From an uncultured virus (IMG/VR IMGVR_UViG_2576861513_000002) (lineage: Duplodnaviria; Heunggongvirae; Uroviricota; Caudoviricetes), in IMG/VR virus record IMGVR_UViG_2576861513_000002: a DNA stretch of 64,000 bases, one strand, 5' to 3'. Below are positions 8,379 through 55,688 of this stretch, piece after piece. The notes under the pieces are model-generated. The model was not told the DNA's origin and did not search any database. It was given only the letters and a program-made list of their open reading frames with translations. Numbering within the stretch: the stretch's first letter is position 1; every line of letters starts with the position of its first letter. Made by a program: the position numbers and the translations under genes.

Positions 8379-8386
8379 GTTTCCCC

Positions 8387-10116: not shown

Positions 10117-10125
10117 AGTCTCCCC

Positions 10126-10476
10126 TCACTCCTTCACGCGCTTACAATCAAATGTGCCAATTATCCGCCCCTGATTCAGGTTTGTGCGGATAAGCTCGAC
10201 GTTTAACCAATGCTTTTTGCTGCCGTCAGGATGAATATATTCAAACCCATACAGATTCCCATCACTAGCAGGCATGAGCGTCATCTCGACTTTCATTCCA
10301 TTTTGTCCAAGCTCAGTAATCTTTTGCGATGTGACCATTTCACCGTTTATCTCAGTCATTTCCCCTACTCTGGCAACCAGTGTAAAATTTCCACATTGAG
10401 TAGTTACGACGCTATTCGCTTCTGCCATACCGTTATATGAAATGACAACAGCCAGTAGGAAAAGTAGTTTTTTCAT
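10126..10476 (-). CDS. Exported (signal peptide) two-Cys protein, paralogue of 20570-20923
   Basis: MKKLLFLLAVV...AEA; shares QCG, INGExVTSQKI, LMPAxDGNxYGFEYI, IGxFxCKxV with the helper gene. Confidence 0.85.
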   Translation of the reverse strand: MKKLLFLLAVVISYNGMAEANSVVTTQCGNFTLVARVGEMTEINGEMVTSQKITELGQNGMKVEMTLMPASDGNLYGFEYIHPDGSKKHWLNVELIRTNLNQGRIIGTFDCKRVKE

Positions 10477-11573: not shown

Positions 11574-11596
11574 AATTGGTTCTCTATATTCAAAAA

Positions 11597-11621
11597 GAAA
11601 AAACCCGGCCTAATCGCCGGG
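11597..11621 (-). terminator. Intrinsic terminator upstream of the satellite hub gene
   Basis: CCCGGC-loop-GCCGGG followed by a T run on the minus strand. Confidence 0.65.
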
Positions 11622-11629
11622 CGTGAGAG

Positions 11630-12304
11630 TTAATAATGAGCATATGGGCGCATGTGCTTATCGATGGTTTTTTGTCTTTCCTTCTCATCGACTTTCTGCT
11701 GCTCCCAGTGCTGATCAAGCTGACGTTGAAGCTGAATGTTTTTATTCACATCAGCATCGAAATCCCGGCGCTTTTGAGCTGCTTCTTTAGCATTGATACT
11801 AGGGATATATGGTTTCGATTTGATGTTGTTCGCCTCCATGTATTCCCCGGCAATTTCCAGTAACGAGACAGCCTCACTCCGTGGAATATTGTCAGGCAAC
11901 GTATAGCCGGAAATGGCTTTCAGAACAGCAATGGGCACAAAGCGAAGTGCCTCAATGGCGATGTTTTCCGGGTTGCGTTCAACGCCAACCGTGAAATCTG
12001 GCACGGCTTTCCATACTGACTTGAGAAACTCAGCATGGGATTGAGGCGGCTGGCCTGAGCCTGCAGGCTGCTGATCGCCAGTTCTTTTCTTTAGCCGGTC
12101 TGCTGTTCGGTTAGCAGCTGCTGCACGATTTTCAGCGGCGATAATCCGATCGTTAGCCGCAGCCAATGCTCTCACGATGGATGTCATGAAATCAGCAGAT
12201 GCGGGGTCTGTAGGGAATTGAATCTCCGTATCATTATCAAAATTTGCAGTAATGATTACGCCAGATCCGGAAGGGGTCGCATTAAAGCGAGTCATGTTTG
12301 GCAT
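11630..12304 (-). CDS. Hypothetical satellite protein (coiled-coil segments)
   Basis: Long ORF; AGGA RBS before MPNMTRF. Confidence 0.7.
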   Translation of the reverse strand: MPNMTRFNATPSGSGVIITANFDNDTEIQFPTDPASADFMTSIVRALAAANDRIIAAENRAAAANRTADRLKKRTGDQQPAGSGQPPQSHAEFLKSVWKAVPDFTVGVERNPENIAIEALRFVPIAVLKAISGYTLPDNIPRSEAVSLLEIAGEYMEANNIKSKPYIPSINAKEAAQKRRDFDADVNKNIQLQRQLDQHWEQQKVDEKERQKTIDKHMRPYAHY

Positions 12305-12483
12305 GGTCAAATTGTCCTGTAACCTCGACGGGATTGTCGGTATGAATATTATACACGCAAACCATAAAATCAGATACAAAACATAACATCAACCACAAAA
12401 AGTGGTAAATAGGTGTAGAGTTCTGCTATTCTGTATTCGTGGGTACGGAATCCCCCACCGATTGCACAATCGTGATACTAAGC

Positions 12484-12515
12484 AAAGCCCGCGCCTTCCT
12501 TCGCGGGCTTTTTAT
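12484..12515. terminator. Terminator hairpin after the primase
   Basis: AAAGCCCGCG-loop-CGCGGGCTTT. Confidence 0.7.
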
Positions 12516-12519
12516 TTGC

Positions 12520-14862: not shown

Positions 14863-15077
14863 GGCATCACCTCGCCTACCAGATTAAATTCTTTGATAAA
14901 TCGTGATTCATTCAGAGTGCATGGAGATAAATAACCATCACGAATAAATGTCACTCTGTTGAATCGGTAACTTTCGACCGTCACAATATCTCCCCATCCA
15001 TCACGCCATTTATCGCCGTGTCTGATTTCAGGCTGAGTTAACCCGCTGGCAATTAAGCCAGATTTTTTCTTTTTCAT
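14859..15077 (-). CDS. DUF4222-like small satellite protein
   Basis: WRDGWGDIVTV...VTFIRDGY...C...RFIKEF; typical position before the primase. Confidence 0.75.
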   Translation of the reverse strand: MKKKKSGLIASGLTQPEIRHGDKWRDGWGDIVTVESYRFNRVTFIRDGYLSPCTLNESRFIKEFNLVGEVMP

Positions 15078-15080
15078 TGG

Positions 15081-15302
15081 TTACACCCCTGTATTCGGCT
15101 TGTAAGCGTCCCGAACTTTCACCAGCTCAATAATGCCGTCATGCAGTAGCGACATGACTGCACTCACTTTGCATGCCTCTGCGTGGCGTTCAGCGTCATT
15201 AGGAATGCTGTCGATCCACATACTCAGAACCGCCATAGCTTCTTCACTGGAATTAAGCGCACTTTCTGCATGAAGCAGGACTTCAAAAGGAATCTGTTTC
15301 AT
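15081..15302 (-). CDS. Hypothetical satellite protein
   Basis: Translationally coupled small ORF. Confidence 0.7.
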   Translation of the reverse strand: MKQIPFEVLLHAESALNSSEEAMAVLSMWIDSIPNDAERHAEACKVSAVMSLLHDGIIELVKVRDAYKPNTGV

Positions 15303-15493
15303 TTCTTATCTCCCTTACCCAATTCGGCAATTAATGCGCGGTGTATTTCATGATTGAAGTCACACGCAATGGAAATCAGGTTTAGAAGCGTGACAGAGCA
15401 TTCATCTGTGGCTTTCTCCAGAATAGTTTCGTAGAGCGATGCGGCCAGTGCAGATTTATATTCGGCCTGGATCAAACTGATTGACTCACGCAT
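15299..15493 (-). CDS. Hypothetical satellite protein
   Basis: Translationally coupled small ORF. Confidence 0.65.
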   Translation of the reverse strand: MRESISLIQAEYKSALAASLYETILEKATDECSVTLLNLISIACDFNHEIHRALIAELGKGDKK

Positions 15494-16364
15494 TAGATAC
15501 CTCCATTGCCAGGCGAGACTGAATCGCTGCGGCTTTGCTGCCTAACTGCAGATAGGTACGAGTTATCGCTGGGTTGCTATGCCCAAGCATTTCAGAGGCA
15601 ATTAAAAGCCCCTGCTCGCCACCGGCTGACATGAGGTTAAATGCTGCGATCTTCCGGCTTGAATAGGCACTTAGGCGCAATTTTGTATTGATAAAGCGGG
15701 TAAACCACGCCATCACGCTTTGGAGTTTTCGCCAGATGGTCTGGCGGGTAACGCTACCTTCCAGACACTGGCAACGGTTACTTTCGATTTGAGAGCGGGA
15801 AAATATCAGGTCGTCCTCTACCAGATTCCGATCCTGACGTTCGCGAAGCCGTTTGATGATGCCCGGCGGTAACTGTTTGGTGTCGTGCTTAACGTCTGCT
15901 TTAGCCACCAGCCCGAATACTATCGCCTGTTCTTCGTCGGTCATATCCGCTGCCAGCGCATCACAGTTGATGCTGTCCCACTTCATGTAGGCGATATGGT
16001 CAGCGGCAAGCCTCGCGGCGTCCTTGCGCTGCTGGCGCACGATTTCAATGCCTTTGCGGGTCGCCCGCGCTTCGGCAGCTTTGGTCTGTTTGGCAACGAT
16101 AATTGTCGCCTGCCCCGTTTCCCAATTGATGCAGGAATAGCGCAGGTTGCAAACGTCGCTGGTACGCCAGCCGGTTACGGTCGCAATGTCCCACCAGAGC
16201 AGCACCCAATCCGGTTGTGTCTGCTGTATGCGTTCGCGTAGCTTGCGCTGTTCGTCACGGTCATAAACTGGCGTCATTGTGCGACTGCCCTTTGTGCTTG
16301 CCGCTTTAACGACATTGCCGCGCAGTTCACGGGCTTTGGCTGTCAGTGTCTGGAGGTTAAACAT
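15486..16364 (-). CDS. Tyrosine recombinase-family protein
   Basis: TGWRTSD, YSSRK, LGHS...TYL motifs. Confidence 0.85.
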
Positions 16365-16602
16365 TGTGCACCTCCAGCATTTCCGGAGTCAGGAGGTTCA
16401 GGCCATAAGATCCACAGCCAGAATCACGCAGGCTGCTTTCAGTGCGGATTTTTGCGGCAAAGGTCAGATTCCAGCATGGAAAGGTATCGCGGGCTTCTTC
16501 TTCGGTATCAGCCATTGTGCGCAATACGATTGGTGTGCAGTCGTGTTTTTTCGGTGTGGCCAGAAACAGCCAGGTATATTTGGGGCAGGTTGGTTTAGCC
16601 AT
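16357..16602 (-). CDS. Icd-like host cell division inhibitor
   Basis: YTWLFLA...ADTEEEAR...LTFAAKIR; follows a C4-type RNA. Confidence 0.8.
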
Positions 16603-16655
16603 TTTAGCGGCTCCTATGTCGAATGAAGGAGTCTCGCCAGATGCTGCTAAACATG

Positions 16656-16734
16656 GGTGGCGAGACGTGACGGGGTTAGCAGACTGGTGACATAGAAACC
16701 AGCAGGCCGAAGCCTCCCCACCACGCCCCGCCAT
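16656..16734 (-). ncRNA. C4/CI-type antisense immunity RNA
   Basis: Cloverleaf-like ATGGCGGGGCGTGGTGGGG...CCCCGTCACGTCTCGCCACC; its loops CTATGTC and CTGCTAA are complementary to sites at ~16800-16822 and ~16615-16652. Confidence 0.8.
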
Positions 16735-16928
16735 AAATCGGGGGTATAGGTGAATTACGGGCGTAAAAATACCGCTATACGGAAATCAGCGGCTACCCGC
16801 TATGTCAGTCAGGCTGCTAAACCCGGCACCCGTTTTGTGAGGTGCGAAATAATCATAACCATGCCCGCCATGTTGACGCAAGCGCTTTATAACATCCGGC
16901 GAATTTTTCCGGGGAAAGAACCTCGCTT

Positions 16929-17032
16929 TATGAACACTATGAATACCCTATGAATACCTTAGATAAAGGTGTTCATAGCCTATCTATCTGATTTTTAATA
17001 CCTATATTCAAATCATGAACACTATGAATACC
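16929..17032. repeat. ATGAA(C/T)AC iteron cluster (putative satellite ori)
   Basis: Six copies at 16930, 16939, 16950, 16969 (inverted), 17015, 17024. Confidence 0.78.
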
Positions 17033-17172
17033 TTTGTGCATTTTTCTGCAAACATTCCACCGCCGCCCGATGAAATGCCTTTCTCTGGCTGGTGTAAGTT
17101 ACCGTTGCTGGCAACAGACAATAAAAAAGGCTTGCCCCTTTCGGTAACAAGCCCCGTCTATTTGCTCCGCTT

Positions 17173-17385
17173 TCATGCGGTACAGATCCCGCGCTTTTCA
17201 CTTTGTTTCCCGATCCACGCTTCAACCTCGTCACGATACCAGCAGTTACGGCCTCCCACTTTAAAAGGCATCGGAAAACCGTTTCCCTCATCTTTGAGGA
17301 AATCATAGAACGCAGAATCAGAACGGTAGCGAAGACGCGCTTTAACCTCGCCTTTAAGTAGTATTTCACTATTCGATTCAGACAT
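17173..17385 (-). CDS. alpA: AlpA-family regulator / excisionase
   Basis: FPMPFKVGGRNCWYRDEVEAWI. Confidence 0.88.
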   Translation of the reverse strand: MSESNSEILLKGEVKARLRYRSDSAFYDFLKDEGNGFPMPFKVGGRNCWYRDEVEAWIGKQSEKRGICTA

Positions 17386-17508
17386 AAAAACCTCCGTATA
17401 TATATGAATCAATTATAACAAATTTGAATAAAAAAGATACATTTCGGCGTTTGAATGGAATAAAAAAAAACTGGCATCTAGCCAGCAATAAACGTCGAGT
17501 TTTGAGGA

Positions 17509-18741
17509 CTAACCTATCAGCCTTAATCCTTTATCGCCCTTTGTCTCAAGCAGTTCTCCGCGCTCTGCGCTATCGACATAATCCCCCCACCACTGCATGA
17601 GCATACGCCGCTGTTCAAAGTAATCAGTACGATTGTAGATATTGCGGATCGCGTTCCTGCTTCTGTGAGCAAGTGCCGCCTCAATAACATCAGGGTTAAA
17701 CCCTTCTTCATTCAGCACAGTAGATGCAAGCGACCTAAGCCCGTGAGTAACTACCTCTCCGCTTAGCGATGTTTTATGAATAGCGATCTGCCCGGTACAT
17801 TTCCCAATCGGCTTATCTCCCTTTTTGCCGGAAGGAAAAATAAACGCCCCGCGCCGCCATTTTTCAGCATTGCGTAAAACAGCTATTGCTTGCGCGGACA
17901 GCGGTACAGCGTGTGGCCTTTTCCCCTTCATTCTTTCAGACGGAATTTTCCAAACAGCACTGTCTAAATCAATTTCGTCCCAAACAGCCAGGCGAGCCTC
18001 AGAGGGCCTTACCATCGTTAAAAGCTGGAAGTAAACACACAGCCTTATCGGCTCCCACATACTCAGCCCCAGCCATTCAGAAAGGAACACAGGCAATCTG
18101 CCTTTATCCATCACGGGCATTGGTACGCTTCTTTTGGCTGGGAAAGCCTTGCCGATTTTTAGCAGGCAATTATGGTCAATGACTCCGGTGTTTACCGCAT
18201 AATCCATTACCGAATTGAGCACAACTATCATCTTTTCCACAGAGGCGGGACGATCTGCAAACTCTCTCATTGCCTGAATTGTTGAGGCGGCATTCATTTT
18301 ATGTACCGGCTCGTCACCAAGAACACTATTCAGCGTTTTTAAAGCCCCCTCGTAGCCTCGAATTGTATTGCTGCGGATTCCCTCCGTGATTTTTATTTTC
18401 AGCCAGTTATCAGCGATAACAGAAAACTGCTGTGCATGTTTTTTCCGCTTGTCGCTGAGTTCTTCTTTTTTAACCTCATTCGGATCTATCCCTCTGGCAA
18501 CTTTCCTTCTGGCTTCTTCTCTCGCCTCTCTCGCTTCTGCGAGACTAAATTCAGGATATCGCCCAATAGTTAAGGTCTGCCTTTTTCCGGTTATGGGGTG
18601 CGCATAGCGGAATCGCCATGATTTCCCACCGGACTTAGTTACATACAGAAGGAGTCCAAAGCCATCATGAAGACTGTAATCTTTAAGCTGTGGCTTCGCG
18701 TTCTTAACTTCTGCGTTGGTAAGTGGTTTAACAAGCATCAT
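17509..18741 (-). CDS. int: P4-family integrase of the satellite
   Basis: DGFGLLLYV, GRYPEFSLAEARE, VRPSEAR, HGLRS, LAH...YNRTDY; adjacent to att. Confidence 0.96.
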   Translation of the reverse strand: MMLVKPLTNAEVKNAKPQLKDYSLHDGFGLLLYVTKSGGKSWRFRYAHPITGKRQTLTIGRYPEFSLAEAREAREEARRKVARGIDPNEVKKEELSDKRKKHAQQFSVIADNWLKIKITEGIRSNTIRGYEGALKTLNSVLGDEPVHKMNAASTIQAMREFADRPASVEKMIVVLNSVMDYAVNTGVIDHNCLLKIGKAFPAKRSVPMPVMDKGRLPVFLSEWLGLSMWEPIRLCVYFQLLTMVRPSEARLAVWDEIDLDSAVWKIPSERMKGKRPHAVPLSAQAIAVLRNAEKWRRGAFIFPSGKKGDKPIGKCTGQIAIHKTSLSGEVVTHGLRSLASTVLNEEGFNPDVIEAALAHRSRNAIRNIYNRTDYFEQRRMLMQWWGDYVDSAERGELLETKGDKGLRLIG

Positions 18742-18910
18742 CAGCCCCTTTCACTGCTTCCGCTGTGGTTTCTTTCGTAGTCCCACTTATGGCGAATTGA
18801 ACCCCAGATAGACGAATGCAATCGAATGGATTCAAACACCATAAGCAGGGACTAAACCCAGCAACACCGCGCTTTATTGAACGTTAACGTATTGATTCAT
18901 AGATATTAAA

Positions 18911-18982
18911 ATAATCAGGCGCACTGATCCCCTCAGCGGTTACCGTTGCCGATAAGCCGAGTGTGTCCAAATTGAGGGCCAT
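18911..18982 (-). pseudogene. Baseplate J-like gene, 5' 24 codons
   Basis: MALNLDTLGLSATVTAEGISAPDY; ATG abuts the stop of the upstream wedge gene; reads on into FNIYESIR-stop inside the satellite. Confidence 0.92.
18912..18928 (+). repeat. Satellite att site (right)
   Basis: 16/17 match to 6207-6223. Confidence 0.93.
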
Positions 18983-31089: not shown

Positions 31090-32364
31090 TTATTTGTTTT
31101 TTGCCCAGAATTCGGCATTGACTTTGTTCAGTTCTGCCGGGGAAAGGTGTTTAGTGCTGATTCCGCTGTCCGTGGTGCGGGTGATGTTATTCAGCGGGAC
31201 CAGCTGATTTTTCGCCTTATGCAGCGCCACAGCGGCAGTAAACACCGCGTCGACCGTTGCCTTAGGCGCTTTGTAGAAATCATCCACACCGAACGATTTC
31301 AGGCTGTCACCGGTGCGCATTGCGTGATTCAGCACCTGACGTTTCAGGCTCTTATCGCCAGCAGGCTGGAAGCCAGGGCAAATAATTTCCGCGTCGGCGA
31401 TCAGGTTGCGCTTAAAGGCTGCGTCGCCCGTCACTTTCCGGTTTTCTTCTTCGTCTTCGTCGGTGGTCATGTTGCCGGGGTCCGGATCGTTATCGGTGGT
31501 TTTACCCTCCAGCTTTTCCAGACGAGCCAGCAACGCTTTCGCCCAGGCTGGAATTTCTTCATCACCCGTGCCGGTTTTGTCTTTGTTCGGATCGCCTTCG
31601 TCCGTGGTGGTGGTGCGATTGCCTTCAGGCAACGCGGTGGCCTGTGAAGGAATGTTGATGGTGATAGAGGAACCGGGGATTGAAGGCATGCCATCAGACG
31701 GCATATCCGGCGCTTCGTCGATGAGTTTTGCCAGTGCATCCTCATCTTTCGTTTTAATGGCCTGAGCCAGTTTTTTAAGCCATGACATTACAGGCTTCTC
31801 CTTTGTTGTTGATGGGATGGAATCCCCGATTGCACAGCGGCCACCAGCACGCCCCCGGTCGATGCCGACAGCGAGGTGGTTACCTGTGATTTGGTATTGC
31901 TTGCCCTTACCGGGGGCCAGCTGCTTGTACTGCGCGTCATAGCCACAGCTGACATCGGTCAGGCCAGAATTCACCGCGTCGATTGCTTCCTGCCGTTTAA
32001 TCAGTACGTCAGCAATGAGCAGATCCGATTTATCGCCGGTGCCGCGCCGGACGTTCTGAATGTGTCCGTGTGCCAGCTCTGCGAAGTTAGAGGGGTTTAC
32101 GAAAACGATGTTGCCCAGACTGTCCTCTGGATGCCCCAGCGTGACGGCTACGCCCTCAAAGCTCGCCATCGTCTCCGGGGAAAACACCTCGTCTTCCGTT
32201 CGCCAGACCGTCACCGTGCCGGTGCCGTCCGGTTCGAGGTCGATTTCCTCAGGTAAATAGACCTGCGTCCCTGTGCGTGCGATCGGCACGTCTTTACACA
32301 GCAGAGAGCCGTCCGCCTGCAGATAGCGCGTTTCTCCCAGGCGTGTAGTGAAGAAATATTTCAT
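31090..32364 (-). CDS. Prohead protease/scaffold (DUF2213-like)
   Basis: IARTGTQVY, VTLGHP, SCGYDA, NHLAV..GRAG. Confidence 0.88.
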   Translation of the reverse strand: MKYFFTTRLGETRYLQADGSLLCKDVPIARTGTQVYLPEEIDLEPDGTGTVTVWRTEDEVFSPETMASFEGVAVTLGHPEDSLGNIVFVNPSNFAELAHGHIQNVRRGTGDKSDLLIADVLIKRQEAIDAVNSGLTDVSCGYDAQYKQLAPGKGKQYQITGNHLAVGIDRGRAGGRCAIGDSIPSTTKEKPVMSWLKKLAQAIKTKDEDALAKLIDEAPDMPSDGMPSIPGSSITINIPSQATALPEGNRTTTTDEGDPNKDKTGTGDEEIPAWAKALLARLEKLEGKTTDNDPDPGNMTTDEDEEENRKVTGDAAFKRNLIADAEIICPGFQPAGDKSLKRQVLNHAMRTGDSLKSFGVDDFYKAPKATVDAVFTAAVALHKAKNQLVPLNNITRTTDSGISTKHLSPAELNKVNAEFWAKNK

Positions 32365-32448
32365 GGGTTACCTGCTCGATTACGGGCAACAAAAAGGCCG
32401 CCCGGAGGCGACCTTGTGAGATGGGAAAAATGTTCGAAATAACGGGCT

Positions 32449-32476
32449 ATTTAACATAAGGGTTCTTACCCGCACC
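32449..32476 (-). promoter_or_regulatory. dif/psi-like XerCD site
   Basis: GGTGCGGGTAA-GAACCC-TTATGTTAAAT (perfect XerD arm, 6-bp spacer). Confidence 0.8.
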
Positions 32477-32625
32477 GACGAAAATGGACTGGATTAAAAT
32501 GTCCCCTTAAAGCCGTAAAAGTAGCGATTAACTGGGCTGAAAATCGGCCTTTTCGAATACAACATTTTCATAACATTTCGCAGGTATTGCAGTTCGCATG
32601 AAATGAATGCTCAAAGCCGTATTTT

Positions 32626-33354
32626 TCATTTTCTCGGTGCTGGAATCTGTACTTCAGGCCAGCATTTGCAGTTCGGCAAACATCCGGCGTGTCCGGTCAT
32701 ACCGTCCAGCGTCGGCGGGTTATCCCAGCGCACAAATTTATCTTTCATCTTGCGGTGAGAATCCCGCGTTCCGGCCCCCTCAATACGCCACCAGTAGCCC
32801 TCTGAGCCAACCGAAAGGGCTCTGGCCTGCGTCAGCGCGCCGGTAGCACGTCCAATCTCTGTACGGGCAATCAGCTGCGCCCTGCTGGCGGCCACGTCAC
32901 CGGAGGCCATGATCATCTCGTAGAGCTCGTCCGGACGTTCGCCACTGATAACCGCCTGCATTGCGCGCTGTTGTATGTCCATCACGCGATCGGCGGCTTC
33001 CAGCGGCAGGGACTTCATCAGCTGAATCTGGCGGTATACGATATCCTGCGCCACCTGCCCGACAGGGGTATTACCCACCACATCGCGCAGGCCAGCGCCA
33101 ATTTCCTCTGATACCGATTTCCACAGGTTCCATTCCTCCTGCTCGACCTGGGCAAACATCCTTCGCCCGACCTGCTCTGCCCAGTCGCTGATTACCTCGG
33201 AATAGTCCACCAGCGTTTTCGAAATGCTGTCAGCGCTGGCCTGTGAACCATCGTAGGTACCATCGACGATCTGCCCTATCTGGTTTGCTATCGCCAACAT
33301 GCTTTTTCGATACTGGATCTCCGAACGGCGGCGGAGGGATGGTTTCAGGTTCAT
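32626..33354 (-). CDS. Minor head morphogenesis protein (Mu F / SPP1 gp7-like)
   Basis: RAQLIARTE, TRDSH, PNCKC. Confidence 0.9.
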   Translation of the reverse strand: MNLKPSLRRRSEIQYRKSMLAIANQIGQIVDGTYDGSQASADSISKTLVDYSEVISDWAEQVGRRMFAQVEQEEWNLWKSVSEEIGAGLRDVVGNTPVGQVAQDIVYRQIQLMKSLPLEAADRVMDIQQRAMQAVISGERPDELYEMIMASGDVAASRAQLIARTEIGRATGALTQARALSVGSEGYWWRIEGAGTRDSHRKMKDKFVRWDNPPTLDGMTGHAGCLPNCKCWPEVQIPAPRK

Positions 33355-34699
33355 CCTCCTCCCACTGGGCCTTCGCATCTTCTATGTCCTCGTCAGTGAT
33401 AGAACCACCGATCCCAATCACATCAGAAATGTTCCTGAGGTCGTTAAGCGCGGCTGCCGGAGGCATTCCGAGGTCACGAACGGCGGTACCGAGTGCAGTA
33501 ACCACATTGTTCGCCATCGTTGCACGGTCCACGTCTGACATCTCCCAGAGCTTGTTAAACTCGAAAGTAAAATCGTCAGGCAGTGGCTCACCGAACAGAG
33601 AACGCCAGGAGATATCGAGCAGCCAGCGGATATGGCGGCGTAAGCGTCTCTCCTGCAGCGAGTTAACCCGGCTGTAGTAGTTTTCCAGATCGCCGTCGCC
33701 GGTATTGAAACCTGCAGGGGACTGCCCGAACAGACGGACAAGAGGAATTCCCGTCGCGCCAGAAACCTGCTCAGCGAAGCGCAGGAGGACATCCGCGATA
33801 CCGGCGAACGTATAGCTGTGAGTCTCGAATTTATCCCTTGAGTCCATCATGGTCATGCCTTCGATGGTCTGAAACTCACGAATCATGTCCATGTGCTTCA
33901 TCAGCGACTTTTCCAGATCACCGCCTTTGGCAAGGATGTCACGAAGCTTTTCAATGCTGTAGGTTCGCAGATGTGCTTTGTGGATCAGCTGTGTGGTGCC
34001 GACCGTTGCAGTATCGAACGCCTCGATACGCTCGAAAATACGCTCCACAACAGACATCCCCCAGCCGTTTTCCGTCTGGGCCTGCTGGAAAGGTAGCGTA
34101 TCACCCTCCATGCGGATAACGCGGCTATGGTGGATCTTCCAGGGGGGGATCCCCTGCTGGTTCGTGATTACCTTGTAATATTTCGGTTTCCCAAAATCGG
34201 GACCGTAATCAGTAACGAGATCGTAATAACTCGGGTTAACCATCCAGCGGTCAAGGCTCATCACGCCCTTAAACTGCCCCTCTTTAATACGATCCAGTTT
34301 CAGTGGGGAGGACATATCCTGCCCTTCAAGCAGGACCACCAGCACCGCGCCACCATACAGTCGGGACCATTTGAGGTTATCGTTAAGCCCATCCCATATA
34401 GCGAGCTCATCCCAGAAGGTTTCGAGCTTGCCTTTTTGGCCGGGTTTCAGCTTTGAGCTGATGTTAATGCCCTTGCGGGTCATATCATCGGCCATCGCAT
34501 CCACACCGGCCCCCACGAGGAACGATGAACGATACGCAAACTCCAGCATCACCCTGTTACGGCTGATGTACCCCGGCATGTACATTCCGCCCGTCTGGAT
34601 GTTTCTGGTGTCGCTGCCAAGTTTGGCCGTGAAATTGTTGTACCCGTCAGATGTCCTAACGGGCTGCTGTGCGCCGTTCTGGCGTTTCTTTCGGGACAT
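33230..34699 (-). CDS. Portal protein (DUF1073-like)
   Basis: WSRLYGG, IHHSRV, IPLVRLFGQSPAG. Confidence 0.9.
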   Translation of the reverse strand: MSRKKRQNGAQQPVRTSDGYNNFTAKLGSDTRNIQTGGMYMPGYISRNRVMLEFAYRSSFLVGAGVDAMADDMTRKGINISSKLKPGQKGKLETFWDELAIWDGLNDNLKWSRLYGGAVLVVLLEGQDMSSPLKLDRIKEGQFKGVMSLDRWMVNPSYYDLVTDYGPDFGKPKYYKVITNQQGIPPWKIHHSRVIRMEGDTLPFQQAQTENGWGMSVVERIFERIEAFDTATVGTTQLIHKAHLRTYSIEKLRDILAKGGDLEKSLMKHMDMIREFQTIEGMTMMDSRDKFETHSYTFAGIADVLLRFAEQVSGATGIPLVRLFGQSPAGFNTGDGDLENYYSRVNSLQERRLRRHIRWLLDISWRSLFGEPLPDDFTFEFNKLWEMSDVDRATMANNVVTALGTAVRDLGMPPAAALNDLRNISDVIGIGGSITDEDIEDAKAQWEEDEPETIPPPPFGDPVSKKHVGDSKPDRADRRWYLRWFTGQR

Positions 34700-34700
34700 G

Positions 34701-36317
34701 TCACGCTCCGGCCAGTTTGGCCCAAGTATCAAGAGAGGAATCCATCGGCGCGTAATTAATCATTACGGCGTCTGCAAGGTTCGGCGATTTTGTGCCTTCC
34801 GGCTGTTTATCCACGAGGATTTTACCGACGGCGTTTTTCGACCATGTAGGCTGTGAAAGCTCCATCAGCAGGCGGTCAATATTTTCTATCTCGCTGCTTA
34901 TCGAAATGATTTCGTCGGGGTTGTAGTCCATCCCGTTCAGCGCGCGGAAGGTGTTACGAAACAGCTTGCGAAGATGCCACCAGCTCTGTGCTTTCGCGTT
35001 CGCGAAGAAGTCTTTATTCAGGCGCGCCGCTTTACCGTTATCACCAGGAACGGCTTCATCTTCCGGATCGAATACGCTACCGCTACCACGGAAAGGTGTA
35101 GCTGTGATTGTTCCCCGGCCTTCAGCCTGCCTGAGCTCGTTTATCACGCGAGCATCGCCACGCGCACCAGCACCCAGACCGTCCTCATCGAAACGGAACT
35201 CATCCAGACCGTAATCGTCACAATACCCAAACGATTTAACGACAGAAGCGTAGATGTCGCTCCCAATGCCAGACCATTCGTGAACGTTCTGCAGAAGGAA
35301 GCCATAGCGGCAAGAAAAGCCGTTTTTGTCTTTCCCTTCGTCCGCGATATCCATTGCGCCGAGGCGCTGGCCGCTGGGCTGAATACCCAGTTTGATATGC
35401 GCGTCGACGGCAGCCTGCACCCATTCAGAAGGAATGAGAATCCCCTCTGTTGATGCGCTGTAGTTCAGGTCCAGTTCCTGAGCAACGATAATCGGATCAT
35501 CAATTTTCAGACATTCGTTGCGGTACCACTCGTCATCCTTGCGCGGGTCGCTGCGCCAGTGGAACGTAAACACCGGGATGTTTCCGCTGTGGCGCTTTTT
35601 AGCAAACGGGTTATTCATGCCGTTGACCGAAGAGAGGTCTATACGGCAGCGGGTGGTCTGTGATAGCGCAGCATCGATGAGATATGGCCGTTTGAGGAAT
35701 GCCGACTCATCCACAAAATAAAGCGTGGTACGGTCACCACGGCCAATGTTATCGCCAGCCTCTCCCTTGATGATCGCCCCTGATTCTGGAAATTCCACCT
35801 CCATGAATCTGGAGTGTTTTTTTTCATTCCAGCCACCGCGAAACTCTACCGGGAGCAGTTCGATAAATTTTCTTGCTTTCCAGAAAAGTGATTTTGGGTC
35901 GCTCGTTGAATCGACGTACATCTCTTTACGGCTACCAAAACCAATCACCATATCTTTGTTAAACAGACACAGGGAACAGGCAAGGCCGACAGAAGTCCAG
36001 CTCAGCCCCATTTCACGGCTTTTCTCTGTGAGCCCATTTTCACGATTTCCGCGCCTGTCCATGATCCAGTGAATCCATTCCTCCTGGCGTGGGAACAGCA
36101 AAAACGGGATGGTGGCAGGCAGGCCATAATCGAGGTTACGCGGGTCCGTCGTCATACCCCAGTCGATGATGAACTGAGCCGGGTTAGTGCGGTAAAACTC
36201 ACGGAGTGCCGGAAGCATTTCAGGCGCTTTCCTGATCCGCTCCAGCCTCTCCATTCTCCACTCAAACACGGCGGTATAGTCCGGTTTGCGGAAGTCAAAG
36301 GGGAACGGGATCGGCAC
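34701..36317 (-). CDS. terL: Terminase large subunit
   Basis: KSREMGLSW Walker A-like, [20 protein letters not shown]; probable GTG start. Confidence 0.92.
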
Positions 36318-36342
36318 AGAAAAATTCCTCAAAAACGCCCCG

Positions 36343-36370
36343 ATTTAACATAATGGTCGTTACCCGCACT
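36343..36370 (-). promoter_or_regulatory. dif/psi-like XerCD site
   Basis: AGTGCGGGTAA-CGACCA-TTATGTTAAAT. Confidence 0.8.
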
Positions 36371-36515
36371 GGCGCAACAGCACCCATCACGCAAATGGCG
36401 TGAAGCCTCTGTTTTGAACAGAAAAGTGATCAAATCGGGATGAATAAAACGTGCATAAAACGGGTCAAAAAGTGCATAGCGTTTTTACGGTTCGAAACGC
36501 CTGTTTTTGCAATTT

Positions 36516-37118
36516 TCAGCCCAGGTATTTTTTGTAGATATCGGCTGCTTCCTGCGGGGTCAGGTTCGCCGCGTCGGCTTTGGCTGCCTCGTCCATATTG
36601 TTGAACGGTTCGAAAATTTTCGGTGCCCCCAACTCCATAAGCAGGGTTGCCGGAACTTTCACTCCCTCAGCCTCAAGCAGCTGCGCCGCCTCCAGCGCGG
36701 AGTATTTCCCGGCTACCTTATGTTTCATCACCTCGCGAAGCACATCACGCTGACGTTCTTCCTCGCTATAGACGCTGGTACCAAGACCGAGCACCTTTGA
36801 GAAAACAGCAATATCGTTGTGCGTGGGCAGCACATCTTCAATCGTGGTTTTCACACCATCCGGCGATGTGGTGACAACCTTCCGTTTACGAACGTCCAGG
36901 CTCTTACCGGCGACGCGGTTTATTTTTTCTCTGAGAGCTTCGCGAGCCTCAGTGAAAGCGCGCTCAAACTCGATATTCTCTTTACGCCAGCGACGGATCG
37001 TCGTCTCGTCCACACCTAAGCGCTGAGCAACCATCCGATTGCTGATTTTGCTACGGGCTAATGCCATGTCCATAACGATACCGACGTAGGCTTTTCTGAA
37101 GCTTTTTTTAGGAGCCAT
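36516..37118 (-). CDS. terS: Terminase small subunit (HTH)
   Basis: VAQRLGVDETTIRRW HTH, C-terminal LTPQEAADIYKKYLG; upstream of terL. Confidence 0.8.
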   Translation of the reverse strand: MAPKKSFRKAYVGIVMDMALARSKISNRMVAQRLGVDETTIRRWRKENIEFERAFTEAREALREKINRVAGKSLDVRKRKVVTTSPDGVKTTIEDVLPTHNDIAVFSKVLGLGTSVYSEEERQRDVLREVMKHKVAGKYSALEAAQLLEAEGVKVPATLLMELGAPKIFEPFNNMDEAAKADAANLTPQEAADIYKKYLG

Positions 37119-37362
37119 ACTTCCGCCTAAGTCAATGTGATTATTTTTTGTTCAAAATCCAATTTCTCCGATCCGGGTGCGGCGTATCACGCGGTAAATT
37201 CTGGCGTGCAGGCCGCGTCCTCTCTGGTGCCAAGTTCGGCATATCAGAGGGGGTAAAAATGCGGCATATCCTTTTTTTCGGGAAAACTGCGATTTGATGC
37301 CCGGAGGCCGCGCAGAATGGGGAGATAGTGGATCGCCCTAATATTTCCACTATGTGGATAAC

Positions 37363-38367
37363 TCAGTCCAAATCCATCTCCACCACTTCACCGAACAGGT
37401 GACCGTAAACATCCATTGTGGTTTTGATGTTCGAATGCCCAATAAGTCGGGAAACCTTCAGGATATCGACGCCTTTGTTTGCCAGGCGAGATACAGCAAA
37501 GTGGCGAAGATGATGGAATCGCTTAATGCCATAGTCGTTCAGAGTTCTGACGAGAACGCCCTGAGTGCCGTAGCTGGTAGCGAGGCATGCGCCGGTAAAC
37601 TGGTTGCAGATAAGAGGCTCAGAGGTACCGAGTTTACTTTTATCCAGCAACGCGAAAAGCTCACGCGGCATCCGTACCCGGCGCTCCACTCCTCTTTTCA
37701 GCCCCTCATGTATAACGCCGTCAACAACATGCCCCCGGATGTCGATCCAGTCGGCTGAAACGTCGTTATACGTAACCGCCAGAGCCTCACCGATTCGCAG
37801 GCCACAAATCCCGAGCCAGCACGCGATACGCTCACGAACTGGCGCGTTATTCAGTAGCTCCCTGACCGATGATGATGGCGGTATGGTGATGGGTCGACGC
37901 TTCCGGCGCGCGGGACGGTCAACAGGGTTAAAAGTGATGAGCCGTTTTTCCACCAGCAGGAAGAAAGCCGAACGAATCCAGCGATGGCAGCCGGTGCGAA
38001 CCGAATCAACGATATCGCGATGGCTGATATGGAGAATGTTTTTTCCCAGTATCGGCCCGTCTACAGCGAGAAGATCGTGACGGCATTTCGTATATGACGA
38101 CAGCCGTATGATATTTTTTTCCAGCTTGCCGGCCTGATACCCCAGATAAAACAGAATTAACTTTCGGAAAGTCCAGGAATGGTCTATTCCGGTCCAGCTG
38201 GCGGTTCGACAATCCAGTTCGATATTCTGTTTTTGCCAGAAAAGATGTGCGGCATCATCAATATTCTTAAAAATGCGGCGGCGTCCATGACCGGATTTTT
38301 CATCCTTCCAGTGGACGTAATATTTTGATTGTCCATTGGCATCAGTGGATTCTTTTATTGAAGCCAT
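37363..38367 (-). CDS. Tyrosine recombinase between lysis and packaging genes
   Basis: GLRIGE, HHLRH, GHS...YGH. Confidence 0.9.
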   Translation of the reverse strand: MASIKESTDANGQSKYYVHWKDEKSGHGRRRIFKNIDDAAHLFWQKQNIELDCRTASWTGIDHSWTFRKLILFYLGYQAGKLEKNIIRLSSYTKCRHDLLAVDGPILGKNILHISHRDIVDSVRTGCHRWIRSAFFLLVEKRLITFNPVDRPARRKRRPITIPPSSSVRELLNNAPVRERIACWLGICGLRIGEALAVTYNDVSADWIDIRGHVVDGVIHEGLKRGVERRVRMPRELFALLDKSKLGTSEPLICNQFTGACLATSYGTQGVLVRTLNDYGIKRFHHLRHFAVSRLANKGVDILKVSRLIGHSNIKTTMDVYGHLFGEVVEMDLD

Positions 38368-38443
38368 ACTGAACAATCCTCACTCAAAAAACATTATCAA
38401 AGCCACTCAGTGAATGACTTTTGTAATGTCATGCTGGCAATAG

Positions 38444-40212: not shown

Positions 40213-40827
40213 TCAAGTACGCCTGAAAGCGTAAGTACCAACATCTTTGCGCCCGAGCTCACACTCGATATTGTTGTGTTCCACGCATTCGAAGCCCTGC
40301 TCTGCAAACCAGCGCCTGATACCTTCATCAGTGAAATACCAGATGTGCTCGTTCTTTCTGAAATGATGGGAGCGGAGAATGTCTCCGGCATCAGTGAAAA
40401 TCGGGATCGACACGAACACGTATTCACTGGCCTGCTGTACCGCCAGCTCCGGCTCGTCGATGTGTTCAAGTACATCCCACATCGTCAATGCTCGCCACTT
40501 ATTGGCGTAGAGATCTGCGAATGCGCCCCGCTCATTCAGCCAGGCAATACCAGCCGGATTAACGTCATACCCAAGCGTTCCCGGTCGGGTAGAGACGAAC
40601 TGACCGGCACCGATACCAACGTCGAGAACAGGGCCGTGAAAATGGCGCTCCACCAGCTCAATACGGGATTGCGTTAAAGCTCTGCCCGTTTCGGTGTCGG
40701 CCAGTTGCTGATACTTTGCGAAATACTGCTCGTCATACGGGCGTGATGCCGGAACGGGATAACGTCCGATCCCCAGCTCCGGTAAAAATACCAGCCCGCT
40801 TTCCAGTTCCTGATAAAACGACTTCAT
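40213..40827 (-). CDS. Class I SAM-dependent methyltransferase
   Basis: VLDVGIGAG, GYDVN, WDVLEHI. Confidence 0.85.
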   Translation of the reverse strand: MKSFYQELESGLVFLPELGIGRYPVPASRPYDEQYFAKYQQLADTETGRALTQSRIELVERHFHGPVLDVGIGAGQFVSTRPGTLGYDVNPAGIAWLNERGAFADLYANKWRALTMWDVLEHIDEPELAVQQASEYVFVSIPIFTDAGDILRSHHFRKNEHIWYFTDEGIRRWFAEQGFECVEHNNIECELGRKDVGTYAFRRT

Positions 40828-41674
40828 GGAGCCAGGCCTCGAATTTATCGGAGAAATTTGAAATCCGCTTGTCGCAGTGGTGATCCCATGCTTCACAGCG
40901 GCAGTAATTGTCGGGAATTGCCCAGCCAACCCGGGAGAGGTCCATCGCCGGATCGGTTACGATTTCCGGTGCGTTGTGACCACCTCGCCCACCAGCGACA
41001 ACGTACACCGGCGTTTTATAGGCAATAGCAGCAGGAAGCGCCCAGCCCACCGGAGTAACCACCACGGCGGCATGTTCAATCAAGCGCATCAGCGATTTGA
41101 AGTTGAGCTGGCCGGAGTGCATGCGCAGATCTGCTTCGGGAAGTTCACCAACGGCCCACTCCTCCCCCTCCTGCAGGTCAGCCACGCTGATTACGCAGAA
41201 ATGCTTTCTTAGTAGCCGGGATGCCTGCAGCAGGTAATCCGGATCAGGATTACGGGAGTCGCTGCGCCATTCGCTGCGAACAGTTGCCGGACGAATTACC
41301 GCGAGCGGCTTTTCAGACGTAAATTCAGCGGGTCCGTAAGAGGGCAAGTCGAGTTCTGACGGCTCGGTGCCAAACTGCTGGCGCATCGCGTCAAATATTG
41401 AACCGCGCCGTAGATGATCCGGACCGTAGAAAATCCGTTTTGTCTGGCGCATATCTGGCGGCAGGTGAAAAGCAGCCTGCGTCCGGTACTCGTTTTTGCG
41501 CTGCGTGCGGAGCGTTGTAAAACTGCGAACGGGCAGAACGGGCAAATCTTCATACAGTTCGGGCCAGGCGGTCCGGATATAAGTACCGGCTGGCAACTGC
41601 TTAACGAAAGCGCGCTGGTAGATGTTGTCACCCATGCCCAGCATGCCTTCAATGAATAGAGGAACGTTTATCAT
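40733..41674 (-). CDS. GT-B glycosyltransferase (GT9/heptosyltransferase-like)
   Basis: GMGDNIY N-terminus; LMRLIEHAAVVVT...AAIAYKTP. Confidence 0.72.
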   Translation of the reverse strand: MINVPLFIEGMLGMGDNIYQRAFVKQLPAGTYIRTAWPELYEDLPVLPVRSFTTLRTQRKNEYRTQAAFHLPPDMRQTKRIFYGPDHLRRGSIFDAMRQQFGTEPSELDLPSYGPAEFTSEKPLAVIRPATVRSEWRSDSRNPDPDYLLQASRLLRKHFCVISVADLQEGEEWAVGELPEADLRMHSGQLNFKSLMRLIEHAAVVVTPVGWALPAAIAYKTPVYVVAGGRGGHNAPEIVTDPAMDLSRVGWAIPDNYCRCEAWDHHCDKRISNFSDKFEAWLHEVVLSGTGKRAGIFTGAGDRTLSRSGITPV

Positions 41675-42219
41675 GCTACCTCGCGTAAAGCCTCATTGAG
41701 GCCGAGACGCCGGAAGCACTTAAGCGCTGTCTGGCGGCTACTGTTGATGATATTCACCTTACCGGCCAGCGCTCTGGCGGTATTGGCAAACTCCCCGCGC
41801 CATCGCGTAACACTCTCTGCTGTAGGATTATCCAGCCCGACGTGATCACCATGCCAGTGACTACCGCCATTAATGGAGCAGTCAAATCCTAACAGGATGA
41901 TGTTTTTCGCCCCTTGGCTGGCAGCAAACAGAATCGAGCGCTGCCCGGAGTTGAAGGCCCACCGGGTATCTGTATCAAACAGATTTAGCCCATAGCGTTT
42001 ATGAGCCCGGTAATTACAGGTCCAGCGAGAGGCGGAGGACGGCAGAACATCGATGTTTGCATCCCACCAGCGCAGATCACCCGCGTAAATGTATTCACAA
42101 TCAGGCACGGCTCGCCAGGTGGAGTTAACAGCAATAACCGGCAGCCCCGATCCGGAGATCAGTTCGCAATCTGATTTATTGAGAGACGGGCCGGATGCAC
42201 AAATGATGAATGTATTCAT
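41671..42219 (-). CDS. Maf/DUF115 or sialyltransferase-fold protein
   Basis: ICASGPSL, IAVNS, FNSG, IILLGFDC...HWH. Confidence 0.72.
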   Translation of the reverse strand: MNTFIICASGPSLNKSDCELISGSGLPVIAVNSTWRAVPDCEYIYAGDLRWWDANIDVLPSSASRWTCNYRAHKRYGLNLFDTDTRWAFNSGQRSILFAASQGAKNIILLGFDCSINGGSHWHGDHVGLDNPTAESVTRWRGEFANTARALAGKVNIINSSRQTALKCFRRLGLNEALREVA

Positions 42220-49671: not shown

Positions 49672-49876
49672 TCAGACACCAATTATCACGCACGAACCAG
49701 TAAATATCGTGCTGACAATCGAGAACGGGAAAGTTATCCACGCGCGCCCGGTTCAGAACGGCGAGGTTACAGCATCGCTGGAGACTTTTTTATGGATGGC
49801 TGAACGCGCCGGTTACACGATCACCCCACCTGCAGGAGAGAAGGACAATGGCCCTGACAGCGATACGAATTCCTGA
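49664..49876 (+). CDS. Early hypothetical protein
   Basis: GGAG RBS. Confidence 0.6.
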   Translation: MSDQTPIITHEPVNIVLTIENGKVIHARPVQNGEVTASLETFLWMAERAGYTITPPAGEKDNGPDSDTNS

Positions 49877-50069
49877 ATGGGTGCACCTGCAGGCGGTCCA
49901 TGTCCTCCGCCAGTTCAGAGCCAGGCGGATTCATCCCTGCCGTATGCACGGCTCCGGAAACCTGAGCCTGAGGGTTAATCGCCGCTGGCGGCTGCTGTCC
50001 CGAGACGGCGGCCAGAATTGGGAAGTAATGAGCCATGAACGATACAGCAAACTGAAGGACAGAAAATGA
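49848..50069 (+). CDS. ParE/RelE-like small basic protein
   Basis: SLRVNRRWRLL...VMSHERY. Confidence 0.6.
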   Translation: MALTAIRIPEWVHLQAVHVLRQFRARRIHPCRMHGSGNLSLRVNRRWRLLSRDGGQNWEVMSHERYSKLKDRK

Positions 50070-51069: not shown

Positions 51070-51268
51070 CTGTGTACCCCTTTCTACATACTGCAGGGAC
51101 GCGGGGGAAACGGTAGAAGCCGTTAACAAACGGATACAAAGGGGGTTATGGAAGGAGGGAGTACATGTATTAAAAGTCGATGGCGTTAAAGAACGCTGGA
51201 TTGACTTAACGGAGGTTTCAAAGTGGGCAAGAAAGAACAAGGATCATTATCTCTCCCAAGAGGAGTAA
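51059..51268 (+). CDS. xis: Excisionase
   Basis: VPLSTYC...AVNKRIQRGLW...WIDLTEV; overlaps int. Confidence 0.82.
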   Translation: MSLDCVPLSTYCRDAGETVEAVNKRIQRGLWKEGVHVLKVDGVKERWIDLTEVSKWARKNKDHYLSQEE

Positions 51269-52395
51269 CCATCCGCCAGCATAAAACTGGCGACACTCTG
51301 GTTATCACGTTCACATACAAAGGGGTTCTGTGCCGGGAGCCCCTCTCCAAAATGGAAGCAAACGCGCGCGGTGTGAAGTACGCCGAGCGCCTGCTCGGGG
51401 AGATACAAAACCAGATCGTCAGTGGCACCTTTGAATATGCGAAATATTTCCCCAACTCCAAAAAGCTGGAGCTGTTCGGGGTGGTGAAGAAAACCAAAAA
51501 CATAAAGTCCTACCTGGACGAGTACCTGAAAATCTGCCAGAACCGCAACCTGTCCCCGTCGACTATAAATGGTTATGAAAAATGCCTGTCGGCGCTGTCA
51601 GCTCTGCATAAACTCCACGTATCAGAACTGACGCCAGCGGTCCTTAAAAACTGGATAGCCAGCCGGAAAACAAAGCTGAAAACGACCAGGAATAACCTTT
51701 CGTTTCTGCGCAGCGCCATCGACGAAGCTGTTACGGATGGCCTGCTGACCATTAACCCGGTAACCCTCGTCAGCGCCAGCCGGTACCACGTGATCGACAG
51801 CAGCCCGAGCGCCGACGATTACGAGGTTGACCCGTTCACGCCAGCGGAGACCCTCGCCATTTACCAGAGCTGCAGGTACCCGGAATGGGAAAACCTGTTC
51901 CGCTTTGCTTTCAATACCGGTCTGCGGAGCTCCGAACTGTGCGCGCTGCGCTGGCCTGATCTCGACACCATCGCGAACACAGCCCACGTCCAGGCGGCCA
52001 GTGTCGTAGGGGTACTTAAAGGCACCAAGACAAAAGCCGGTACCCGTAAGGTGGAGCTGAACAGTGAGGCGCTGGCGGCCCTGCAGGCGCAGAAGCAATA
52101 CACCTTTATGAAAAGTGAGTTCATATTCAGCGATCCGAAAACGGGAGAACCCTGGGCGAACGCCGACGCTATCCGTAAAAAAGCATGGGTGCCGACCCTG
52201 AAAAAAGCTGGCGTGCGCTATCGTAACCCTTACCAGACGCGGCACACATTCGCCACCAAGCATATTAGCCAGGGCGTTAACCTCTTCTGGCTTGCCGGAC
52301 AGATGGGCCACAAAGGGCCGGAAATGATATTCCGCAACTACGGTAAATACCTGGCTGAATATGACGGTAAAACCGCGATTTCAGCCGCGCTGTAG
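51223..52395 (+). CDS. int: Prophage integrase
   Basis: TGLRSSEL, YQTRHTFA, MGH...YGKY; next to att. Confidence 0.96.
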   Translation: MGKKEQGSLSLPRGVTIRQHKTGDTLVITFTYKGVLCREPLSKMEANARGVKYAERLLGEIQNQIVSGTFEYAKYFPNSKKLELFGVVKKTKNIKSYLDEYLKICQNRNLSPSTINGYEKCLSALSALHKLHVSELTPAVLKNWIASRKTKLKTTRNNLSFLRSAIDEAVTDGLLTINPVTLVSASRYHVIDSSPSADDYEVDPFTPAETLAIYQSCRYPEWENLFRFAFNTGLRSSELCALRWPDLDTIANTAHVQAASVVGVLKGTKTKAGTRKVELNSEALAALQAQKQYTFMKSEFIFSDPKTGEPWANADAIRKKAWVPTLKKAGVRYRNPYQTRHTFATKHISQGVNLFWLAGQMGHKGPEMIFRNYGKYLAEYDGKTAISAAL

Positions 52396-52518
52396 CGGGG
52401 TAAATATTTCAAAATGTTGGACAGAATCAGGACGTTAGACAGACCTCAATATGCACGTAAAATGCACGCGAGGCCTGTCAAAGTGACAGAATCCTTTATT
52501 TTCAATGAGTTAAATAAC

Positions 52519-52554
52519 TTTCAGACGCGAGTTCAACTCCCGCCAGCTCCACCA
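52519..52554 (+). repeat. Prophage att site (displaced ssrA 3' end)
   Basis: 34/36 match to 1495-1530. Confidence 0.95.
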
Positions 52555-55222: not shown

Positions 55223-55657
55223 ATGATGCAAGAGCATGCTTGGAAATATTTTGAACTACACTCTCAACAAAGAATGACGGTATTTAATTTCTATATTACG
55301 ATAATAAGTCTTTTGATAGCAGGTAGTGGAATATGCTTACAGCAAGGAGGCAATCTAATTTATCTGACATCTGCCTTGGGTATATTTATTATATTTATAA
55401 CCTTTATTTTTCATAAACTTGACTCAAGGGTGTCATTTCTTATAAAAAATGCAGAGAAAGCCTTGAGAAAAGCAGAGGATAATTATGATAATGAAGAAAT
55501 GAAAATTTTCACCTCTGACCACAATAATGAAAACCTCAATAAAACCATGCGCTCACTATGGAGTTATGGGAAATGTTTCAGGCTATCGTTCGCTATCATA
55601 TCATGCCTTGGCTTTATGATTTCAATAACTCCGATGGTTATAAATTTCATGGGCTAA
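55223..55657 (+). CDS. Small multi-TM membrane protein
   Basis: Three hydrophobic segments; 31 bp upstream of the dtcA-like gene. Confidence 0.75.
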   Translation: MMQEHAWKYFELHSQQRMTVFNFYITIISLLIAGSGICLQQGGNLIYLTSALGIFIIFITFIFHKLDSRVSFLIKNAEKALRKAEDNYDNEEMKIFTSDHNNENLNKTMRSLWSYGKCFRLSFAIISCLGFMISITPMVINFMG

Positions 55658-55688
55658 TTTTTTATAAATTTTATAGGACTGAAACAAA

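Follow-up and report, generated by a model that had tools for sequence, protein, structure and literature searches.

Why should a temperate tailed phage with an integrase of its own carry, around its large terminase and portal genes, two sites of the kind served by the Xer recombinases of its host? The question is raised by a stretch of 64,000 nucleotides from an uncultured virus (IMG/VR record IMGVR_UViG_2576861513_000002; Caudoviricetes), hereafter called the window, in which a prophage holds two such sites, site 1 in the gap between the small and large terminase subunit genes (terS and terL) and site 2 where F, a minor head gene, is followed by the gene of a DUF2213 protease (Table 1). Phages are known to employ Xer for integrating at dif; here a different role is considered. 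Judged by their sequence, the two repeats are very probably recombination sites of the host XerCD type (Xer recombination sites, xrs), with psi-type cores and accessory DNA rather than bare copies of dif, and there is about an even chance that they act as two mutually incompatible multimer-resolution sites for circular phage DNA. The case is built on the anatomy of the sequence, its conservation, the fixed phasing of the accessory motifs, the targeting of the sites by insertion sequences (IS) and a few rare fusions.

The sequence-only reading that preceded this analysis had described two directly repeated 28-bp sites with unequal spacers, both intergenic, and this description was reproduced exactly: the repeats lie 3894 bp apart, and a search allowing up to three mismatches finds these two cores alone in the window and none in 100 shuffles (mean 0.00). 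Each core has the build of an xrs: a 6-bp spacer separates an arm that matches XerC sites from one that matches XerD sites, each arm being 11 bp long. The cores were compared with dif of the nearest genome (G001), taken as the comparison host, and with psi, cer and mwr as retrieved from database records; the XerD arms of both agree with dif at 11 of 11 positions and with psi at 10 of 11, while the XerC arms agree with dif at 9 (site 1) and 8 (site 2) and with psi at 8 (site 1) and 9 (site 2) of 11 positions. The spacer of site 2 shares four of six bases with that of psi; with the dif spacer, site 1 shares two of six bases and site 2 none. The spacer of site 1, CGACCA, also occurs in one predicted ArcA-type plasmid xrs, as given in Supplementary file 1 of PMC11724359. 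G001 itself contains both sites, a separate dif more than 1 Mb away, xerC and an M17 peptidase of PepA length. The host XerCD-type identity proposed earlier is borne out by the match of the arms to dif and psi, and the sites are widely conserved (see below). The earlier description of the cores also stood; what it overlooked is the conserved accessory DNA beside the XerC arms and, upstream of terS, a gene for an additional tyrosine recombinase.

Each core is flanked on its XerC side by about 150 bp of non-coding DNA. In plasmid xrs, according to PMC11724359, accessory sequences adjoin the XerC arm and the box of a regulator stands at a defined position. Two classes of accessory DNA can be told apart, class R at site 1 and class A at site 2. 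Class A carries the motif TGTT[A/G]-N6-TGTT[A/G]; all 52 members of a first set have it at -99, its position being no part of the class definition; in a variable-gap scan with 15 spacings allowed, 77 of the 80 class-A matches listed span 126 bp. The motif was likened by eye, with no matrix score, to the E. coli ArcA boxes, which are described as 11-bp direct repeats (PMC3798270), and psi carries it at -96 on the opposite strand; site 2 has, as a sequence motif, what marks a psi-type site, an ArcA box at a fixed position beside the XerC arm. In class R, TAT[G/T]CA recurs at -108, -87 and -76 or, one helical turn further out, at -118, -97 and -86, and the same kind of scan, again with 15 spacings allowed, gives 79 of 80 listed matches with a span of 115 or 125 bp. 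Reversed-pattern controls for both classes had no match in 401 genomes. The half-sites of class R are spaced by N5 in 37 of 40 clusters and by N4 in none of the 40, and for this reason class R contains no canonical ARG box, although its letters resemble ARG half-sites of the cer type. Among candidate binders of class R, DnaA is disfavoured, the ninth base of repeat 3 being A in 0 of 40; PhoP and other candidates were weighed by their consensus sequences, and no assignment was reached.

Site 2 is like psi of pSC101, a site of XerCD with PepA and ArcA, in its 28-bp core and 6-bp spacer, in its arms (8-9 and 10 of 11 positions) and in an ArcA-like 11-bp repeat some 85-100 bp upstream of the XerC arm; it differs in standing in a tailed, integrating prophage, in the inversion of the box and its position 3 bp further out, and in being one of a pair whose other member is of another class. 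Site 1 resembles cer of ColE1 and mwr of pJHCMW1, served by XerCD with PepA and ArgR, in having XerC-side accessory DNA with AT[G/T]CA half-sites, but its XerD arm is of the dif/psi type and its three half-sites follow periods of 21 and 11 bp with N5 instead of N4. The sites are psi-like, yet strict members neither of the psi group, from which the inverted box sets them apart, nor of the cer group, from which the ARG spacing does. With dif and the FtsK-dependent xrs of large plasmids they share an XerD arm matching at 11 and an XerC arm matching at 8-9 of 11 positions, but they have other spacers and conserved accessory DNA and lie far from the terminus; no FtsK-orienting polar sequence (KOPS) is present between 21932 and 54410.

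That both classes were conserved became evident from pattern scans of IMG/VR and GTDB, in which the totals of sites and pairs are lower bounds, biased to the patterns used. The sequence-only reading had suggested a survey of related phages as a check, and the survey found at least 302 distinct sites in enterobacterial prophages, at least 165 of class R, at least 119 of class A and at least 18 unclassified; the labels of these 302 sites rest on motif position, the spacing tests being those of the first set of 52 class-A sites and of the variable-gap scans. An apparent match of 41 of the 119 class-A sites to the other class was rejected as an artefact of three fusions counted in the R set. In order-wide scans, the 30 genomes of the family of G001 include 3 with class R and 1 with class A, and 371 other genomes have neither; a genome scan with an over-specified pattern gave no match, and one with a simplified pattern gave 25 stretches, three of which (L143, L154, L159) are non-phage sites. 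Wherever the context can be read, sites of the late region occupy the junctions after Q, terS/terL, terL/portal and F/protease. Among the pairs listed, all 69 distinct ones are direct repeats with unequal spacers; the upstream member is of class R in 66 of them (unclassified in the other 3) and the downstream member of class A in 69 of 69. The first, XerC-proximal, spacer base is unequal in 68 of these 69 pairs and in 20 of 21 distinct combinations, compared with 8-12 of 21 at the other positions. One locus (L224) has an additional site on the opposite strand.

Some records met in the survey deserve mention on their own account. Klebsiella records of 37-42 kb that are filed as plasmids (L173, NZ_CP077781, and H70-H79) match site 1. 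Yersinia phage YP3 (L001), which was excluded from the pair counts as a possible misassembly, has three site 2 cores (at 2657, 19088 and 21489), a shuffled gene order and terS apart from terL, one of the cores following a class-R accessory region fused to part of a class-A one; rearrangement or misassembly is a possible explanation. Phage EKP1 (L172) is labelled an Elizabethkingia phage and has enterobacterial-type genes, Xer sites and Chi bias; its host label may be wrong.

The best in vivo sign that cells treat the sites as xrs comes from mobile elements. Four of the 24 sequencing runs listed were compared, as contigs, and one of them, a run of 2025 (X9), represents an independent, near-identical isolate with four of five contigs at least 99% alike to the window. 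Its assembly breaks at both sites, the loose ends start with TGT and finish with ACA, and a 5-bp duplication directly borders each XerC arm on its outer side (36371-36375 at site 1, 32477-32481 at site 2), from which it follows that one IS was inserted at both sites in the same orientation. According to two reports (PMC10132070; bioRxiv 10.1101/2022.12.17.520857), elements of the IS1202 family insert into xrs at a distance of 5-6 bp from the XerC arm and in the same orientation; an IS at this distance with a 5-bp duplication, which can be taken as a mark of recognition as xrs, is what X9 has at both sites, and the finding suggests that the two sites are seen as such by the cell. Of the at least 302 sites listed, six (L003, L033, L072, L097, L135 and L344) have an IS end 5-6 bp away from their XerC arm, and in L072 the whole element of about 1.98 kb is present, with a 5-bp duplication, 15 of 26 terminal bases matching and a transposase with helix-turn-helix (HTH) and rve domains that starts beside the site. 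At L097, 27 bp of an IS end are left 5 bp from the XerC arm and the accessory spacing is back at -108/-87/-76; to judge from its sequence, this remnant is the scar of an IS insertion followed by a deletion.

From these observations we infer that XerCD, PepA and ArcA bind the sites, that the sites recombine and on what substrate. Each site would recombine with its own twin on a supercoiled circular multimer or in a tandem prophage and so yield monomers, site 2 with XerCD, PepA and ArcA, site 1 with XerCD, PepA and a second protein that would bind the phased TAT[G/T]CA repeats. Multimers would often arise if, as its Chi-rich genome and the failure to find a Rec module suggest, the phage depends on host RecBCD/RecA; a circular state is supported by one record, deposited as a Klebsiella plasmid, which proved on opening to be the whole circular genome of a temperate phage of the group (pCDI231-42.6). 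Exchange between site 1 and site 2 would be kept rare because their spacers and accessory classes differ, and terL, portal and F would be retained. The placement in the late operon might, more speculatively, let late transcription switch resolution off when headful packaging needs multimers.

Several points weigh against multimer resolution and have to be set beside this case. The gravest is that resolution destroys the circular multimers needed by a headful phage that has no Gam, so that it would have to be off late in infection. The targeting by IS is evidence of recognition of an xrs and not of catalysis, its dependence on bound XerC being a proposal of the IS1202 paper, and the element of X9 is known from ends of 27-30 bases alone. 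The ArcA-like box of site 2 is inverted with respect to psi and three other plasmid examples and lies 3 bp further out than in psi; site 1 has no canonical ARG box, that is, N4-spaced half-sites some 100-115 bp upstream. The contrast at the first spacer base is weak given the relatedness of the phages, P ~0.03 assuming an independence that the combinations lack. The close relatives SEN34 and yong1 have no site and many phages carry one alone, which makes the sites dispensable; a remnant prophage of E. coli B has none either. No core-to-core joint occurs in the four runs compared, which are contigs and give no molecule ends. Finally, 3 of the 165 class-R sites listed carry the XerD-side flank of class A (97-98% identity) and then the protease gene, portal to F being lost in L005 and terL to F in L060 and L125/L421; these fusions are suggestive of exchange at the cores and count in favour of it, but they share at least 13 identical bases at the junction and slippage is conceivable. 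In line with the earlier claim that unequal spacers preserve the 3.9 kb between the sites, spacer inequality and retention of the genes in between go together in the 69 of 69 listed pairs.

An elaboration of multimer resolution is tentative and rather unlikely: in tailed temperate phages of enterobacteria, the two new and separately regulated accessory architectures, the inverted ArcA box and the three-repeat box of a putative third Xer accessory protein, might switch the copy state of the genome, collapsing multimers at lysogeny and being released or reversed in late lytic growth so that packaging has its substrate, in a manner tied to host conditions such as redox state. Of the competing explanations, the one that survives best, though still unlikely, is non-recombinational: XerCD and the accessory proteins would bind and, in the lysogen, form a complex that blocks or silences either the late operon or in-situ packaging, recombination not being what is selected. 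In its favour, those sites whose context can be read are placed between genes where the late region begins or further inside it, the IS found in prophages suggest recognition in lysogens, and an RNA contig from one study spans 32609-38355 at a depth of 35.9 as compared with 3-9 beyond site 2, a weak hint that carries no ranking of genes. On the other hand, recombination sites are built in just this way, from two full arms, a 6-bp spacer and accessory boxes in helical phase, the constant inequality of spacers within the pairs listed is relevant only if exchange is possible, and a promoter scan finds no sigma-70 promoter-like site in either accessory region.

The role favoured by the sequence-only reading was a circularisation comparable to that of P1, and it has been weakened to the point of being decidedly unlikely. 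In P1, loxP lies near the packaging start of a headful phage and its recombinase, Cre, is encoded by the phage and acts on linear DNA; the sites of the window likewise lie near the packaging start, but would employ host enzymes under supercoiling-type control, and their position varies. They would have to fall in the terminal redundancy of headful DNA, where host XerCD would circularise the incoming genome, the two sites serving successive headfuls. Headful packaging can be postulated because TerL has as its nearest solved relatives 8dkr, which we take to be the E217 terminase, and the Sf6 gene 2 protein, E217 and Sf6 being, as we assume, headful packagers; with pac presumed in terS, sites 1 and 2 lie 748 and 4642 bp, respectively, downstream of the terS start, as circularisation would have it. 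The absence of Red, Erf and RecET genes noted earlier was also confirmed, PHROGs and Pfam giving no match to Red, Erf, RecT or Sak among 87 window open reading frames (ORFs), of which small uncharacterised ones remain, and this favours circularisation too, since nearly all putative headful lambdoids carry a Rec module and a phage with none is rare (PMC12315714). In other lineages, however, sites come immediately behind Q, before the lysis genes and terS and 2-4 kb upstream of terL (606R2, L010, L219, L296, L297, L314), and would therefore fall outside a redundancy that starts at pac in terS; others follow the primase-helicase in phages with a different head module (L076, L185, L204, L300), and Mulock and pCDI231-42.6 encode bet, exo and gam and carry the sites as well. 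No DUF3653, presumably the domain of XafT-like activators, is among the Pfam matches of the window ORFs. Recombination at psi and cer, as described in bioRxiv 10.64898/2026.02.23.706985, takes place only between direct repeats on one supercoiled molecule, a requirement that argues against circularisation. Moreover, the late strand of the prophage (1531-52515) has 28 Chi, with 5.4 expected from an order-4 Markov model (EKP1 has 21, YP3 24, SEN34 13, 606R2 10, yong1 8 and Mulock 7); Chi-rich genomes are a known pattern of phages devoid of recombinases (PMC3784561), and the missing Red module has in this an ordinary explanation.

It is very unlikely that the system works in reverse, XerCD fusing phage circles into headful multimers in the lytic cycle once the filter imposed by the accessory DNA is gone or has been changed, as by the inverted ArcA box and the new repeat class. 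A phage with no Gam needs circular multimers, by the logic of lambda red gam (PMC12315714), the accessory geometry departs from that of psi and cer, and xrs of Acinetobacter plasmids are described as forming cointegrates (PMC11705084); but the accessory sequences described in PMC11724359 and bioRxiv 10.64898/2026.02.23.706985 enforce resolution only, RecA and Chi already yield multimers, and Red-positive phages carry the sites as well.

That the two sites bound an exchangeable packaging module of the pdif kind, the second role envisaged by the sequence-only reading, is largely refuted and highly improbable. Three natural deletions end at cores and the head region is mosaic, but identity to relatives changes within terS, portal and the early part of terL and where terL meets portal, and shows no such step at the cores, where mosaic boundaries had been looked for, the sequence of close relatives remaining similar across each core; a search of IMG/VR gave no reciprocal junction, and none of nine candidates is a fusion of the pair of the window itself, whose spacers are unequal at both ends. 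The Acinetobacter pdif modules resemble the present arrangement in their xrs pairs around genes and as targets of the IS1202 family; according to PMC11705084, most of them are inverted pairs and were not excisable, they enclose accessory genes and no accessory sequence was found, while the pairs described here are direct, possess accessory DNA and enclose head genes that are essential. Hardly credible at all is that the sites are targets of the extra phage tyrosine recombinase, in spite of its gene some 1 kb upstream of site 1 and the catalytic motifs we believe it to show, or an attP of integrative mobile elements exploiting Xer (IMEX), since, among the listed loci with enough flank, this gene is present beside no more than 23 of 96 class-R sites and 25 of 42 pairs, the arms are asymmetric and of XerC/XerD type, and the attP of CTXphi, TLCphi and relatives, which are likewise phage-borne, dif-like and served by host XerCD, bring about dif integration of elements with no integrase, whereas this phage has its own, occupies ssrA, which in G001 is over 1 Mb away from dif, and has spacers far from dif-compatible.

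Table 1. Features of the prophage and of its Xer-type sites in the window.
Feature	Position	Strand	Remarks
Site 1 core	36343-36370	minus	XerC arm 36360-36370, spacer CGACCA 36354-36359, XerD arm 36343-36353; terS/terL gap
Site 1 accessory DNA, class R	36371-36515	minus	TAT[G/T]CA at -108 (36473-36478), -87 (36452-36457) and -76 (36441-36446) from core
Site 2 core	32449-32476	minus	XerC arm 32466-32476, spacer GAACCC 32460-32465, XerD arm 32449-32459; between minor head gene F and DUF2213 protease
Site 2 accessory DNA, class A	32477-32625	minus	ArcA-like 11-bp direct repeat at -99 (32560-32575), inverted relative to psi box
Prophage	1492-52554		Bounds are 39-bp repeats of ssrA 3' end, 1492-1530 and 52516-52554
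Integrase of prophage	51223-52395		With excisionase
Extra phage tyrosine recombinase upstream of terS	37363-38376	minus	Not XerC/D: scores 28 bits against XerC cut-off of 335
Terminase small subunit (terS)	36516-37118	minus	Weak PHROGs matches, HTH; presumed pac region, pac position inferred
Terminase large subunit (terL)	34701-36332	minus	Nuclease domain closest to E217 and Sf6 terminases
Portal	33230-34732	minus	PF06381, phrog_146
Minor head/head morphogenesis protein (Mu F-like)	32626-33378	minus	PHROGs/Pfam
Terminator-like hairpin just beyond site 2 XerD arm	32394-32415	minus	Consensus match; 7 such in scan, 5.6 in shuffles
DUF2213 head maturation protease	31090-32364	minus	PHROGs/Pfam

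The prophage is of the myovirus type and temperate, with genes for integrase, excisionase, repressor, helicase, primase, Q, lysis, head and contractile tail assigned by PHROGs and Pfam; E. coli 25-07338 has an uninterrupted copy of it at ssrA in which both Xer sites are kept. The extra tyrosine recombinase of the late operon, which presumably shows the catalytic motifs, is conserved at 95-99% in relatives, EKP1 having one too, and is 45% identical to a recombinase (7353-8420) of a satellite. The latter is a satellite-like element of 12.7 kb (6207-18922) which, flanked by an 11-bp repeat, interrupts the baseplate J gene of the prophage and is missing from the E. coli copy; it contains an integrase (17509-18741), a P4-like primase (12520-14862), two further tyrosine recombinases and its own copies of baseplate hub and spike. 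A three-gene insert between Q and holin (40213-42219), present in the E. coli copy as well, encodes a sialyltransferase-like/MptE-like protein, an uncharacterised one and a methyltransferase, and is possibly a cassette for surface or DNA modification. The early-left operon includes a gene with a ParE-like toxin domain (49848-50069), and in the adjacent island four genes of low GC content (31-36%; 55223-60258), for an 8xMP membrane protein, a 994-aa protein, a response-regulator receiver and a receiver joined to a PNP/nucleosidase domain, look like a defence system.

Accessory-controlled Xer sites are familiar from small plasmids, with ArgR and ArcA as the only known secondary factors. Searches of open-access papers and preprints found none that deals with Xer sites of the accessory type in tailed phages, and the use of plasmid-style Xer sites to keep circular tailed-phage DNA monomeric is not described in the literature so searched. 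With at least 302 sites, the tailed prophages of this family, which encode integrases, would represent a new user of the accessory-controlled Xer system; the repeat of class R hints at either a third accessory factor or a new ArgR geometry. The head operons of prophages join the list of targets of the IS1202 family, and prophages may lose their terminase and portal genes by way of fused sites.

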